Shown: positions 534 to 63,115 of the stretch, piece by piece
Layout: every line of letters begins with the position of its first letter
How positions within the stretch are numbered: position 1 is the stretch's first letter
Virus record (IMG/VR): IMGVR_UViG_3300043436_001160
Coordinates: 5,422-69,421 of that record
Direction: 5' to 3' (one strand)
DNA length: 64,000 bases
Source of the DNA: a virus
The notes under the pieces: generated by a model
Told to the model about the DNA's origin: nothing
The model's database searches: none
The model's input: the letters and a program-made list of their open reading frames with translations, nothing else
Made by a program: the position numbers and the translations under genes

Positions 534-2969
534 ATGCTAGAGGCATGGAATAAACTTAGTAAAGAAACTAAAGAAAATAGAGTAACTTTACAAAAACTTT
601 ATGAAGAAGAGTTACTAGAGAACGGTACTGAAAAGTACTGGCGAGAGTATGGTCGAGCCCCAGATGAGGGTAAGCCAGAACAATTGCTACTTGAATCAGC
701 CGTAATCCACCTCACTCCATTCTATCAAAAATGGATTGATGAATGTTCTAATAATCGTAAGTCTCCAGATTGGTTAGCTCCATTGTTATGTATTGGTGCT
801 GCTAAAATGGCTGATATTACAATTAGAAATGTAATGCGTTTGTTCTTAACAAGAAACACATTACAAAACTTTGATGATTCAATAGGCATTCCAAGTAATG
901 CACCTATTGCTCAGCAAGTTGCTAAGTTAATTGCAGATGATGTTATTTCAATTATCGCATATCAACAGGCAAAGAAAAGATTCTCAGAAGATTGGCGTAA
1001 ACAATCTAAGTTTATTAAGAACTGGACTGTTAAACGATGCAAAGCATTTACCCTCAAGGTAACTAAGCTTCCTAAACTAAAGGCCAAAGAGAAAGAAGAT
1101 CTCGGTCATAATATGCTTAGGATTGCTTTGGCTTCTGATATCTTAATTAGTCGTATCCATTGGAATGGTAAGAATAAAAAGTCTCTTCTTGTTTCCTTTG
1201 CTCCTTGGATTCTCAAGGAACTAAGCAAGCGACATGAACTACTTGAACAAGCCTGTCTTGTTTACCGTCCAATGATTTGCCCACCTGTGCAGCATACTAA
1301 TAAAGAAGATGGTGGATTCCTATCGCCATGGATTCGCAAGAAGATGATTAAACGATATCATCCTGTTGGTGCTAATCCTAAGGATTGGGATTCACGTCCA
1401 TCTGAATTGGTATTGCGTGGTCTTAATGCCCTTGCAACTACAGAGTGGTCAGTTAATAAGCAAGTCTATGATGTTATGAAAACTATGTTTGAGAATGATT
1501 ATCGAATTGCTAATCTTCCAGCATATACATTCCAAGACTTTGCCTTTAGTCGTACTTATCCAGAAGATGGGACTAAAGAACAACAAGCCAAGTGGATGCA
1601 AGAATCTAATGAAGCTTGGGGTGAATGGTACAAAGAAGAACAAGCACGATCAAGAATGATTGTCCGCCTTGAGCTTGCTAAGAAAATGGCAAGTTGGGAT
1701 TTCTTCTACATGCCATACACTTTGGATTTTAGAGGTCGAGCATATTCAGTATGTGAGTTGTTGTCTCCTCAGGGTATTGACTTTGATCGTGGTCTAATCC
1801 ACTTTGCTGTACCTAGGAAACAATCTCCGCAAGGTTTGCGGTGGTTAAAGATTCATATTGCTAATCTCTTTGACCAAGATAAGAAATCCTTTGAAGAACG
1901 AATTCAATGGGTTGATTCTAATATTGATATGTTGCTTAGGATTGCAGAAGATCCATATGCTAATAAAGAATGGATTGATCTAAGCAAGAAGAAGAACAAA
2001 TCATTCCAACGCCTTGCAGCAATCTTTGAAATTGCCCGTAAGGATGGAATGACTCAACTTCCAATTCAAATGGATGGCGCTAATAATGGTGGACAACATT
2101 GGTCTGCTATTATGCGTAACAGAAAACTTGCTGTGCTTACTAATCTTATTAAGACTGATAAGCCTCAAGATTTGTATCAGTTTGTAGCAGATGCTGCAAC
2201 TGAACACATGCAAGCTAATCCTGATAACAAATGGTTTCCAGCATTCCTTGAATATTGGAATAATGAATTACCTAGAAATGTAACTAAGCGTCCCACAATG
2301 TGTGATGCATATGGTCTTACATTCTACGGTATGCAGAAATATGTAAAACAGGAAGGCCATGTTGATTGGGTTAGTAAAGAACAACGAGGTGGTGCCGTTG
2401 TTGAACTAAGCCGAGCTATTCAAGCTGGCCTAGGAGAAACAATGGAATCTCCAAACAAAGGTAAAGAATGGTTGCGTGAAGTTGCAGATATCCTCAATGC
2501 AATGAATAAACCATTTGTTTGGACTACCCCAAGTGGGTTTGAGGTGCATCATGTTTATAATCAAGTACTTGAAAGAGTCAGTTATGCTGAGTTATTTAAT
2601 CGTCAGCAACTTGTGTTCTGCACTGTTACGGAAGATCTTGATGGTAAAGCGCAGTATCTTGCAATTTCTCCAAACTTCATCCATTCATTAGATGCAGCAC
2701 ATATGTTTATGACTATCTCCCAAATGCTTGATGAAGGTATGTCTGCTTATTCGTTTGTACATGATTCATATGGAACTTATGCTCCTGATGTTGATAAGAT
2801 GCATGTACTACTGAGAGAAGAATTCATCAAGATTCATAAGGAGAATCAACTTGAAAGACTCAAGAAAGAAATTGAAGAAAGATACGGCATCTACCTCCCA
2901 GAATGCCCCCAACAAGAAAACGAATTCGAAGTCGAAGAAGTCATTGAATCAGAATACTTCTTTGCCTAA
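534..2969 (+). CDS. T7/T3-type single-subunit DNA-directed RNA polymerase
   Basis: DFRGRAY, motif A DGANNGGQH, motif B RNVTKRPTMCDAYG, PNFIHSLDAAH, motif C VHDSY, C-terminal YFFA. Confidence 0.97.
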   Translation: MLEAWNKLSKETKENRVTLQKLYEEELLENGTEKYWREYGRAPDEGKPEQLLLESAVIHLTPFYQKWIDECSNNRKSPDWLAPLLCIGAAKMADITIRNVMRLFLTRNTLQNFDDSIGIPSNAPIAQQVAKLIADDVISIIAYQQAKKRFSEDWRKQSKFIKNWTVKRCKAFTLKVTKLPKLKAKEKEDLGHNMLRIALASDILISRIHWNGKNKKSLLVSFAPWILKELSKRHELLEQACLVYRPMICPPVQHTNKEDGGFLSPWIRKKMIKRYHPVGANPKDWDSRPSELVLRGLNALATTEWSVNKQVYDVMKTMFENDYRIANLPAYTFQDFAFSRTYPEDGTKEQQAKWMQESNEAWGEWYKEEQARSRMIVRLELAKKMASWDFFYMPYTLDFRGRAYSVCELLSPQGIDFDRGLIHFAVPRKQSPQGLRWLKIHIANLFDQDKKSFEERIQWVDSNIDMLLRIAEDPYANKEWIDLSKKKNKSFQRLAAIFEIARKDGMTQLPIQMDGANNGGQHWSAIMRNRKLAVLTNLIKTDKPQDLYQFVADAATEHMQANPDNKWFPAFLEYWNNELPRNVTKRPTMCDAYGLTFYGMQKYVKQEGHVDWVSKEQRGGAVVELSRAIQAGLGETMESPNKGKEWLREVADILNAMNKPFVWTTPSGFEVHHVYNQVLERVSYAELFNRQQLVFCTVTEDLDGKAQYLAISPNFIHSLDAAHMFMTISQMLDEGMSAYSFVHDSYGTYAPDVDKMHVLLREEFIKIHKENQLERLKKEIEERYGIYLPECPQQENEFEVEEVIESEYFFA

Positions 2970-61198: not shown

Positions 61199-63115
61199 AT
61201 GAAACTTCACTACTTTGGTAAGGGTGAAATCAATCTTCACGATCTGATTCAGGTCGTGATGCCAGCCCACATTGCGGCTGGTAATGATCCCACGGACTTT
61301 AGTCCAGTGGGACGAATTCTCGGACAGCTCGTTTCGACGGGCTGCTACTCCATGATTCCTATTCCCTATCGACAGGGAAACAAGGAATATGTTGGCTGGC
61401 AATTGCGTCGTGCCCCAGGCACGACAATTGACAAGATCATGGCAGCAGTGCCAGAAATCAATCAGATTGGGTTGCCACACAAGGCGGGACTACACATTGC
61501 GGATAATGTCCGCTTCCAAGTCAACGAGGGAATGCTTCCTCTTGTTGAAGGGCTCATCTCCCACTACGGGCGAAAGCCGTACGAAATGAATCGTGACGGT
61601 AAGACCGTTACGGTCATTGAGGATGTGTTCCTTACTGAACACATCCAGCGATGGGAGTACGAGTCCGTTGTAAAGGCGGACTCGGGTGAAGCGTTCACCT
61701 TCGCCCATTCACTTGACAGCCGTGGGGGTCGCCAGTACCCCAGCACGGCTGGAGTGTTGGATTGGGATGGTCGCATGATGCGGTCATTTCCAACAATGCA
61801 GACGGGTGAAGCGTCTGCTTTCCTCCGACTGGCCGATCCAGTCAATGTCTCGCGGGAGTACTGCGAGAAGGTTTGGATTCCCGCAGTGATGCGGGAGTTC
61901 AAAGTGAGAAGGGAACAGATCCTTGACTGCATGGATGCAGAAAAGGCTTTAACCTTTGCCACTTCTCCAGACAGTCCACTCAAAAAAATTGGTAAGAAAA
62001 AGAGGAACGTGCTGGGTTTCCTTGCTCAGTGTGGTTTCATCCAAGAGGCATTGGAAACAGGACGTTCGCATGGCTACATGCCGTCTTTGGATGGCCATGC
62101 TAATGGAGTTCTGTCTCAGTGTCTCGCTTATGGCGAAGAAACACTGAAAACCATCCTTATTTACGGGGATTTGTATAGGTTCTTCATTAAGAACCAAGAA
62201 ATCCCATCTTTCGCAACAATGGAGGTAAATAATTATCTCCAGTCACGAGATTGGATGAAGGCGGCAGCACAGCCTGCTACCTATACTTCACGGTTCCTGG
62301 CACCCGTGTTTGTCTACGGGCCTGCTAGCGGAGTAGATCTGGGATGCCATCCCAGTGATTTCACAAAGGATCACAAGATCATTCGTGATAAGTTGAATCC
62401 ACAACTTCCAGTGTTGGCTACAATGGAGGATCAACAGATTCTTCAGCTGGCTGAAAAAGCTGGTGACATGGCTCTTGCAGCTATGTACCGTTCGATTCCC
62501 AGAACAATGGGAGTGGTAGATACTTGGCTGCGAACAGCCAAAGCAATCCACTCCGAAGGTCGAACCATCAAAACCCACTGGAATGGGTTTGAAGTGGAAC
62601 ATTGGGGAGCTGAGCCAGCATTGGATTGGTTCCCTGCCGACGAGAAAGGAGATCGGAACCTTCCCACGGTTTCGATCACCGTGCCTTCAAAGTACCGTGA
62701 GTACTTTGAGAGTAGGAAGTGGCCTACTAGGTACCAACCAACGTGTGCCCCGTTTGTAAAGGGTACACGAGATGAGGATGGCAATGTTGTATTGCCTTAC
62801 ACCCCATCAGGAGAAATCAATACCACCCACACTCCCAACGGGAGTTCGGTGCGGTTGGTTTCGTTGTGTGACGGTCACACGTTGACCGACACAATCGAGC
62901 AACTGGGTGATAACTTTGTGGCTTCGCGTCACGATGCAATCACGGTACGCCCAACTGAGGCATACCTTACCTTGCCACACATGTACGCAAAGAACATGTG
63001 GTGGCGGTGCCAAGATCTCCGTGCTGCCGTGGCAGTGGTTATTGGAGATAAGGACTTTGGGCCTATGATGCCCGAGGCTGAATTCCTTGGCCACAGTGCC
63101 AACGTAATGAAGTAA
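61199..63115 (+). CDS. Second, highly diverged T7-type RNA polymerase-like protein (short N-terminus)
   Basis: In order: LDSRGGRQYP, LDGHANG, DLY, RDWMKAAAQPATY, HWNGFEV, VSLCDG, RHDAI; AGGAG SD. Confidence 0.8.
   Translation: MKLHYFGKGEINLHDLIQVVMPAHIAAGNDPTDFSPVGRILGQLVSTGCYSMIPIPYRQGNKEYVGWQLRRAPGTTIDKIMAAVPEINQIGLPHKAGLHIADNVRFQVNEGMLPLVEGLISHYGRKPYEMNRDGKTVTVIEDVFLTEHIQRWEYESVVKADSGEAFTFAHSLDSRGGRQYPSTAGVLDWDGRMMRSFPTMQTGEASAFLRLADPVNVSREYCEKVWIPAVMREFKVRREQILDCMDAEKALTFATSPDSPLKKIGKKKRNVLGFLAQCGFIQEALETGRSHGYMPSLDGHANGVLSQCLAYGEETLKTILIYGDLYRFFIKNQEIPSFATMEVNNYLQSRDWMKAAAQPATYTSRFLAPVFVYGPASGVDLGCHPSDFTKDHKIIRDKLNPQLPVLATMEDQQILQLAEKAGDMALAAMYRSIPRTMGVVDTWLRTAKAIHSEGRTIKTHWNGFEVEHWGAEPALDWFPADEKGDRNLPTVSITVPSKYREYFESRKWPTRYQPTCAPFVKGTRDEDGNVVLPYTPSGEINTTHTPNGSSVRLVSLCDGHTLTDTIEQLGDNFVASRHDAITVRPTEAYLTLPHMYAKNMWWRCQDLRAAVAVVIGDKDFGPMMPEAEFLGHSANVMK

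Follow-up and report, generated by a model that had tools for sequence, protein, structure and literature searches.

Bacteriophage T7 (Autographiviridae) uses the RNA polymerase (RNAP) of its host for its early genes and a single T7 RNAP thereafter, the textbook case of one phage with one private RNAP. Phage N4 encodes the two RNAPII subunits gp15 and gp16, which together comprise 673 amino acids (aa). Here we analyze a 64,000-nt stretch of DNA (the window; bases 5422-69421 of the single 69,421-bp contig IMGVR_UViG_3300043436_001160) from an uncultured lake-water phage whose genes are T7-like in content and order, with a 69.4 kb genome and a single coding strand. Our results support a genome that encodes two single-subunit RNAPs, a T7-type enzyme and a second, minimal one, with the compact second enzyme in a G+C-rich module (the island) that looks early by its codon use. 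Full-text searches listed no paper that describes two single-subunit RNAPs in a T7-like phage, which does not prove that none is in print.

Like T7, the phage combines a characteristic gene content and order with one coding strand, a terminal repeat and a full-length T7-type RNAP. Unlike T7, it measures 69 kb instead of ~40 kb, carries a second compact single-subunit RNAP and a G+C-rich island with a ribozyme, has its presumed ejection genes after the terminase gene, the last of them encoding a protein of 4182 aa (the giant protein), and shows no detectable multi-copy phage promoter. The parts of PMC4496689 and PMC11445570 that deal with N4 transcription describe a succession of a virion RNAP (vRNAP, gp50), the heterodimeric RNAPII (gp15 and gp16) and finally host RNAP. 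With N4 the present phage shares the possession of more than one phage single-subunit RNAP (acting in series, as we infer here), one of them minimal and without the T7 N-terminal domain, as well as a giant protein at the gp16-like position of the ejection genes. It differs from N4 in that the last polymerase would be a T7-type enzyme and not host RNAP, in its T7-like virion module, and in a giant protein with an exonuclease domain and no relationship to gp50 that our searches could detect.

Results

A T7-like genome with a conserved T7-type RNA polymerase

All 29 open reading frames (ORFs) of at least 150 aa in the window lie on the + strand. Their order is T7-like, beginning with the T7-type RNAP and continuing through a gp2.5-like single-stranded DNA-binding protein, a Toprim/DnaB primase-helicase, a family-A DNA polymerase and an exonuclease; ribonucleotide reductase, portal, scaffold, capsid, tail tube A and B, fibre and large terminase follow downstream.

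534-2969, + strand: T7-type single-subunit RNA polymerase, 811 aa, with N-terminal domain (Pfam PF00940, phrog_414, motifs)
9944-11770, + strand: family-A DNA polymerase (Pfam DNA_pol_A E 1.5e-51; DLKGLE at 398, VHDELQV at 558)

The 811-aa protein had been called a canonical T7-type RNAP by an earlier, sequence-only reading of this DNA, and profile searches agree: it matches Pfam PF00940 (RNA_pol) with an E-value (E) of 2.5e-85 and 287.4 bits against a cut-off of 22, and phrog_414 over residues 20-811 (E 7.8e-161, 538 bits). Its motifs are DGANNG at 514, RNVTKRPTMCDAY at 581 and HDSYG at 743. Identity to the RNAPs of cultured phages is at most 28%. Across sub-clades of related metagenomic loci, however (the window versus L002, L004, L007 and L031), the T7-type RNAP is 81-84% identical where the giant protein is 27-45% and the compact RNAP 14-35% identical, an unusually strong conservation compared with the rest of the genome. 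Beyond the compact RNAP gene, the T7-type gene follows after 6.0-7.6 kb in L001/L005, L002, L004, L007, L020 and L031; in L008 it begins just where the locus stops (L001/L005 and L008/L016 are two pairs, each of one and the same contig).

A compact second RNA polymerase

61199-63115, + strand: compact second single-subunit RNA polymerase, 638 aa (motifs, fold, synteny)

The second, diverged RNAP-like ORF proposed earlier at this location exists, and its identity as a polymerase is supported by motifs, fold and synteny. The 638-aa protein carries DSRGGR at 173, DGHANG at 298, RDWMKAAAQPATY at 350 and RHDAIT at 577, so that motifs A, B and C occur in that order, aligned to those of the T7-type enzyme. 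In an alignment of 13 family members, which share 43-91% identity with the protein of the window, residues D298 and G303 of motif A, R350, K354 and Y362 of motif B, and H578 and D579 of motif C are invariant in all 13; both catalytic aspartates, whose loss the earlier reading had named as fatal to the idea, are thus retained throughout. A Gly instead of a Glu five residues after the motif A Asp leaves room for the 2'-OH and separates RNAPs from DNA polymerases. The compact enzyme has this Gly (G303) without exception, and the phage's own DNA polymerase has Glu (DLKGLE). DSRGGR, which lies upstream of motif A and is a variant of the T/DxxGR motif, contains one extra residue, and D173, R175, G176, G177 and R178 are invariant among the 13 sequences; other compact enzymes show variants of their own at this position, for example PDQRRY.

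The predicted structure points the same way. An AlphaFold model of the 638-aa protein (predicted local distance difference test, pLDDT, 72.1; predicted template modelling score, pTM, 0.71) gave a best Foldseek E of 9.7e-9 at a probability of 1.00, and all matches listed were T7 or mitochondrial RNAPs. Residues 7-638 of the model superpose on residues 284-883 of T7 RNAP, while family-A DNA polymerases align over a third fewer residues. A right-hand polymerase fold, closest to single-subunit RNAPs, is therefore what structure prediction finds. According to this model and the sequence alignments, the compact enzyme keeps the thumb, palm and fingers core together with all catalytic residues and is without the T7 N-terminal promoter-binding domain. 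Compared with other compact enzymes, it has an insert at the position of the specificity loop that ranks among its most conserved parts; this enlarged, highly conserved insert sits where the T7 specificity loop lies.

The syntenic relatives of the protein provide a bridge to known families. Four of seven compact enzymes tested pass the Pfam RNA_pol threshold (42.6-46.8 bits) and five of the seven match phrog_414; the relatives from L003 and L017, like the window's protein, match no Pfam family at E up to 0.01. Using hhalign, the other compact enzymes align to residues 279-812 of the T7-type enzyme (probability 98.6%, E 8.3e-16), and the 638-aa family aligns in turn to these other, Pfam-positive and syntenic compact enzymes over 432 columns (probability 93.8%, E 1.7e-7). 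This chain of homology, together with the relatives' own Pfam and PHROG matches, places the window's 638-aa enzyme as the most diverged branch of a conserved second polymerase.

Co-occurrence across related metagenomic phages, suggested earlier as a check, is nearly complete. The 3' end of the giant gene is present in 28 related loci, 27 of which have more than 1 kb downstream; in 26 of these 27 a compact RNAP ORF follows, complete in 22 and cut by the locus end in 4. L023, the sole locus without it, diverges from its near-twin L025 ~150 nt past the giant stop codon, which would fit either a chimeric assembly or a genuine deletion. With trimming to the first ATG, the compact ORFs encode 585-709 aa (14 aligned), each as a single ORF.

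The compact enzymes thus share a size class with N4 RNAPII (PDB 6dt7), and some syntenic relatives weakly match N4-like RNAP PHROGs (phrog_2051, phrog_2166). Unlike the RNAPII heterodimer, however, the compact enzyme is one unsplit polypeptide in the window and in the 14 relatives aligned. Furthermore, the compact relatives match the T7-type phrog_414 (1e-32) far better than the N4-like PHROGs (6e-5 to 7e-10); the 638-aa protein itself matches neither.

Such divergence might suggest that the 638-aa ORF is a decaying, functionless duplicate of the T7-type gene, and the lack of sequence matches in Pfam, PHROG or PDB would fit that idea, as would the very small size of the family: a profile search of 1.84 billion representatives retrieved 12 proteins at E up to 0.001, 7 of them reaching 1e-30. 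Yet the ORF is intact in 22 loci across sub-clades, 166 columns including every catalytic residue are invariant among the 13 sequences down to 43% identity, and the position and composition of the gene are conserved. Decay is already contradicted by this conservation, and we consider it highly improbable. The 638-aa protein is confirmed as a minimal single-subunit RNAP that is new as a family, with RNA synthesis itself a prediction from sequence and model.

A G+C-rich island with early-looking codon use

60280-60296, + strand: single-copy 17-nt element AAATCGACTTAGGGGTC at the junction of giant gene and island, conserved across the clade
60402-61115, + strand: two small ORFs, 68 aa (membrane segment and Cys-rich tail) and 144 aa (membrane segment) (ORF calls)
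60619-60681, + strand: conserved double hairpin, copy 1, after the stop of the first island ORF (86-89% nt identity to L015, L012 and L011)
63125-63183, + strand: conserved double hairpin, copy 2, after the compact RNAP stop (81-87% nt identity to L017, L010 and L011)
63390-63690, + strand: small ORF (82 aa) and a terminator-like hairpin with a 15-bp stem (63647-63680 plus T-tract), ending the block
63727-64000, + strand: right copy of the contig's 273-bp terminal repeat (self-BLAST)
Genome 307-373, outside the window, coding strand: pistol ribozyme (Rfam RF02679, 60.7 bits against a cut-off of 34.5)
7056-8322, + strand: tRNA genes Arg-TCT (7056-7131), Leu-TAA (8166-8247) and Lys-TTT (8250-8322) (ARAGORN)

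The compact RNAP gene lies in a stretch whose composition changes sharply at the stop codon of the giant gene: G+C after 60264 is 0.477 and 0.495, versus 0.31-0.42 elsewhere in the window. Measurement thus bears out the G+C-rich region noted earlier around the second RNAP, with a high-GC stretch of 4-5 kb. This is a property of the clade. In 16 of 16 loci plus the window, the compact RNAP gene has a GC of 0.50-0.61 (GC at third codon positions, GC3, 0.53-0.83), compared with 0.30-0.46 for the giant gene and 0.37-0.40 for the T7-type gene. Since island GC is common to phages whose giants are 27-57% identical, recent transfer cannot explain the composition. The 68- and 144-aa ORFs (GC3 0.50-0.58) gave only a sub-threshold zinc-finger match in Pfam (E 0.004), and the 82-aa ORF had no Pfam match.

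Codon use follows the same division. In the four island genes AGA makes up 0-17% of Arg codons (5% in the compact RNAP gene), TTA 0-2% of Leu codons and ATA 0% of Ile codons, against 47%, 44% and 12% in the giant gene and 55, 31 and 19% in the terminase gene; the T7-type RNAP gene is intermediate (27%, 16% and 2%). The phage tRNAs read AGA, UUA and AAA, codons that late genes use often and island genes hardly at all. Because the island avoids the codons served by phage tRNAs, it would be translated in a setting of host tRNAs only, i.e., first, and the gradient from island through T7-type RNAP to virion genes would then mirror time. Judged by this composition, an early region is a plausible identity for the island. 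A tRNA-Ile(UAU) and a tRNA-like RNA that had been proposed at 5572-5760 were not recovered, as none of the three tRNAs that ARAGORN gives in the window lies there; a T-arm-like 19-mer at 5636 resembles a 19-mer at 8220.

The island opens with AAATCGACTTAGGGGTC, which starts 16 bases past the stop codon of the giant gene and occurs once in the window at up to 3 mismatches and once in the whole genome. Of the 28 loci with the giant's 3' end, 26 have exactly one copy of its 12-mer core, directly behind the giant stop; L032 has one mismatch, and L027 was left out of the comparison. Alignment of 17 sequences shows 26 invariant columns, and 3' of the element a conserved A/T run and a pairing of G-run and C-run around a variable insert extend up to ~60355. 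RNAalifold predicts only 4 pairs in this alignment, one of them compensated in one lineage, and a search of Rfam over 60200-64000 returned nothing. The conservation of AAATCGACTTAGGGGTC points to a site read by a protein, which from its sequence and location could be a promoter, an origin or a packaging signal. In T7 promoters, CGACT precedes a run of G. The region of AAATCGACTTAGGGGTC likewise has CGACT plus a G-run. Since the T7-type enzyme is 81-84% identical across sub-clades and the compact enzymes only 14-35%, the T7-type enzyme would be the more natural reader of an invariant element. A scan for the sigma-70 consensus found 3 sites versus 4.9 expected, with none on the + strand inside the island; the consensus may not suit the host of this phage, and the result carries little weight.

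Beyond the element, the two double hairpins may be processing sites or terminators, the second being listed as terminator-like with an 11-bp stem. At the far end of the island, across the contig ends, stands the pistol ribozyme, which covers model positions 1-68 of 68 and starts 34 nt past the left terminal repeat; all five relatives searched have one (38.9-46.8 bits), 1.0-2.4 kb after the compact RNAP gene. Both the single-copy 17-nt element opening the island and the pistol ribozyme near its far end are new findings of this analysis. The ~770 nt (genome ~374-1144) that separate the ribozyme from the A+T-rich block, whose first ORF starts at genome 1145, contain no convincing ORF. They have 80-95% nt identity to phages that share 27-40% identity in their proteins, and they show indels the size of hairpins as well as modules that are repeated internally. 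Rfam returned nothing in this stretch besides the pistol ribozyme upstream. By its pattern of conservation it looks like one or several structured RNAs.

The contig's first 273 bases recur at its end with 98.5% identity (self-BLAST: genome 1-273 versus 69148-69421). The relatives' contigs continue through the point of this repeat, a candidate for the true terminal repeat, whose two copies are 98.5% and not 100% identical.

This location invites a different account, in which the compact polymerase serves a late or end-of-genome function, either packaged and injected itself, as a small free-standing virion RNAP whose gene follows the ejection genes, or engaged in replication, concatemer processing or synthesis of island non-coding RNA from a promoter read by the T7-type enzyme. 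The compact gene does follow the virion genes directly, with 600 bp between it and the terminal repeat; the opening element of the island equals the T7-type enzyme in conservation and resembles T7 promoters in its CGACT and G-run, and the island is rich in conserved RNA structures besides the ribozyme. On the other hand, island codon use is opposite to that of late genes and avoids phage-tRNA codons, which is hard to square with late, high-level expression; moreover, the element, two membrane-protein ORFs and a hairpin stand between the giant gene and the compact RNAP gene, and the phage already has a primase-helicase. We regard a late function as a minority possibility that carries some weight.

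The giant protein: a probable exonuclease-bearing ejection protein in the gp16 position

39775-47701, + strand: three ORFs (277, 1347 and 1016 aa), presumed internal/ejection proteins (position between large terminase and giant gene)
47716-60264, + strand: giant 4182-aa protein, presumed ejected virion protein in the gp16 position (ORF; gene position)
49543-50205, + strand: DEDDy-type 3'-5' exonuclease domain in the giant, residues ~610-830 (Pfam, PHROG, invariant residues)
51790-52206, + strand: polymerase-like strings in the giant (D1359...G1364; K1482, K1486, Y1494, G1497), of unproven identity

Four ORFs without a whole-protein family (277, 1347, 1016 and 4182 aa) lie downstream of the terminase gene. 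In T7 and in phage DEV the last gene of the ejection operon encodes a large ejected protein, as described in the relevant part of PMC11445570, and by comparison with that account the 277-, 1347- and 1016-aa ORFs may, from their position, be likened to T7 gp14-16 and DEV gp71-73. None of the three has a PHROG match. Tandem 9-nt repeats rich in Thr, Gly, Ala and Glu codons occupy 47294-47476, at the end of the 1016-aa ORF and just before the giant gene.

As in the class of T7 gp16 and DEV gp71, the giant is the product of the last and largest gene in a block of large, family-less ORFs beside virion genes. Unlike T7 gp16, it is three times the size and bears an invariant DEDDy signature, with no lytic transglycosylase or RNAP family detected. 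Family matches are limited to the exonuclease domain and are borderline in strength: residues 671-758 match Pfam RNase_H_2 (E 8.9e-5, 22.9 bits against a cut-off of 22) and residues 610-739 match phrog_403, 'DNA polymerase exonuclease subunit' (E 0.003). In an alignment of 14 homologues of 4021-4233 aa, ExoI DxE, ExoII NxxxxD and ExoIII YxxxD occur in order, and D616, E618, N699, D704, Y815 and D819 are invariant in all 14; no PDB sequence match was found for this domain. From its genomic position and these residues, the most likely identity of the giant is that of an internal protein ejected from the particle, encoded at the place of T7 gp16 and equipped with an active DEDDy exonuclease; it is presumed to be a component of the virion. 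A separate segment, residues ~2764-2835 (57970-58230), has invariant FAEE[LI]xH[IL]A and DEFxAH strings that are faintly metalloenzyme-like, without a family match.

The sequence-only reading had gone further, proposing three tiers of single-subunit RNAPs on the basis of RNAP-like palm motifs in the giant. Its T7-type and compact tiers stand, while the giant as an RNAP failed tests that had the power to detect one. According to the full three-tier cascade, the giant would be a very diverged injected RNAP that starts at the single element, followed by the compact and then the T7-type enzyme, with little use of host RNAP. The giant does occupy the gp16 position, the place of the virion RNAP in N4-like phages according to the part of PMC11445570 concerned with it. 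The strings themselves are real, with DYAFQG at 1359 and a KxxxKx7Y string at 1482, and D1359, G1364, K1482, K1486 and Y1494 are invariant in 14/14 giants; among nine slices of the giant compared with the 638-aa family by hhalign, the only local match falls on motif B (E 0.005, probability 7%). Furthermore, the single-copy conserved element lies at the very point from which an injected enzyme would need to begin, in an island that is free of + strand sigma-70 consensus sites.

Against this, invariance is common in the giant (342 of 4182 positions), and the strings occur at chance frequency: D....G 16 times versus 14.9 expected, and [RK]xxxKx7Y once versus 1.08 expected. D1359 comes after polar residues, and the model shows it as helix at pLDDT <50. 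Downstream of motif B there is no convincing motif C; the HD that fits best (1271-1272) precedes the motif-A-like string. Neither Pfam nor PHROG gave an RNAP match in the central regions of any of 13 homologues or in three more distant giants. The giant did not align significantly by hhalign to the clade's compact and T7-type RNAPs, to N4 gp50 alone or to a 9-member alignment of N4-type vRNAPs (E 0.078, 66 columns), whereas a positive control, single-subunit RNAPs versus the same vRNAP alignment, just succeeded at E 4.2e-4 over 477 columns. A search of N4 gp50 with the giant profile (hmmsearch) returned nothing. ExDGxxxG, given as the hallmark of the vRNAP family in the part of PMC10654107 that treats it, is absent from all 14 giants and present once in N4 gp50, at residue 1554. 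A further candidate, PVFFFNDAINPGG (D1296, G1301), fell on N4 motif A without significance (hhalign E 0.29) and was dropped as catalytic because D1296 is Asn in L012 and L009. An AlphaFold model of the 1200-residue central region (pLDDT 54.7) had no Foldseek match at E up to 0.001, but the model is so poor that the absence of matches says little; the ESM Atlas gave no usable match. Finally, an N-terminal exonuclease beside a polymerase-like region is the layout of DNA polymerases and not that of known RNAPs. Taken with these results, the full three-tier cascade is unlikely.

Under a related proposal, the giant would be a new kind of injected nucleic-acid polymerase, unrelated in sequence to N4 gp50, in which a DEDDy exonuclease is joined to a very diverged and possibly rearranged family-A-like core, and which starts from the 17-nt element. 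We think this quite unlikely. If true, it would give a T7-like phage a three-polymerase, host-independent cascade with a ribozyme-processed early transcript.

Neighboring genes and distribution

In the block between the island and the T7-type RNAP gene (genome 3741-4685; window 2-487) lie genes for a DUF932 protein (E 1.8e-31) and a ThyX thymidylate synthase (E 4.2e-30). The island, whole or in part, was found in 24 sequencing runs, 23 of which are labelled lake water metagenome and one metagenome only. A tblastn search with the 638-aa protein and the central 1200 aa of the giant against 50,697 phage records gave no match.

Discussion

We have described a T7-like phage genome with two single-subunit RNAPs. 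Our preferred reading, which we hold to be probable, if only modestly so, is that of two single-subunit RNAPs with an island that is expressed first and a giant that is an ejected, exonuclease-bearing protein. The island would be the first part of the genome to be expressed; beginning right after the presumed last virion gene, it would open with a promoter-like element and run into the non-coding stretch headed by the pistol ribozyme. The compact polymerase would then transcribe the next block, including the T7-type polymerase gene, and the T7-type enzyme would in turn transcribe the replication and virion genes. The island itself may be transcribed first by host RNAP or by an injected enzyme. 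The order of this cascade and its independence from host RNAP are what we infer, and nothing firmer.

Several observations weigh against this picture. Sequence searches with the 638-aa protein gave no match in Pfam (E up to 0.01), PHROG or PDB, nor did a profile of 13 sequences, and its family does not align significantly to the T7-type enzyme in a direct hhalign comparison (E 0.25). As for timing, none of the 24 listed runs holding the island is an RNA run. No repeated promoter motif emerged for either polymerase from a repeat search, from a comparison of 12-mers at up to 2 mismatches over 26 intergenic stretches, or from blastn-short of intergenic sequence versus the genome. An element read by the T7-type enzyme, which fits its conservation better, would place the island downstream of that enzyme and not put the compact polymerase first. 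Some of the G+C-richness may come from the island's many structured RNA elements. Lastly, the island lies at the right end of the contig, ~600 bp before the terminal repeat; if the contig ends are physical and entry begins with the left end, as it does in T7, the island would be the last part to enter.

With the preferred reading of two phage RNAPs and an ejected exonuclease, the arrangement works like a T7/N4 hybrid and is not a member of the N4 scheme, because its compact enzyme is a single polypeptide, its giant does not pass the tests for a vRNAP and its final polymerase is encoded by the phage. The main interest lies in the second polymerase, the island and its conserved element. Throughout a clade of lake phages whose virion and replication genes are T7-like, two single-subunit RNAPs have been kept, one of them reduced to its catalytic core. 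For promoter recognition, this is a natural experiment on the contributions of the N-terminal domain and the specificity loop; for evolution, it may be a bridge between the T7 and N4 strategies. As tools, the new compact polymerases, perhaps with a short promoter, could serve in vitro transcription. Finally, the composition of the island, its element and the ribozyme suggest a phage way to set immediate-early expression apart, with host-like codons first and codons dependent on phage tRNAs later.

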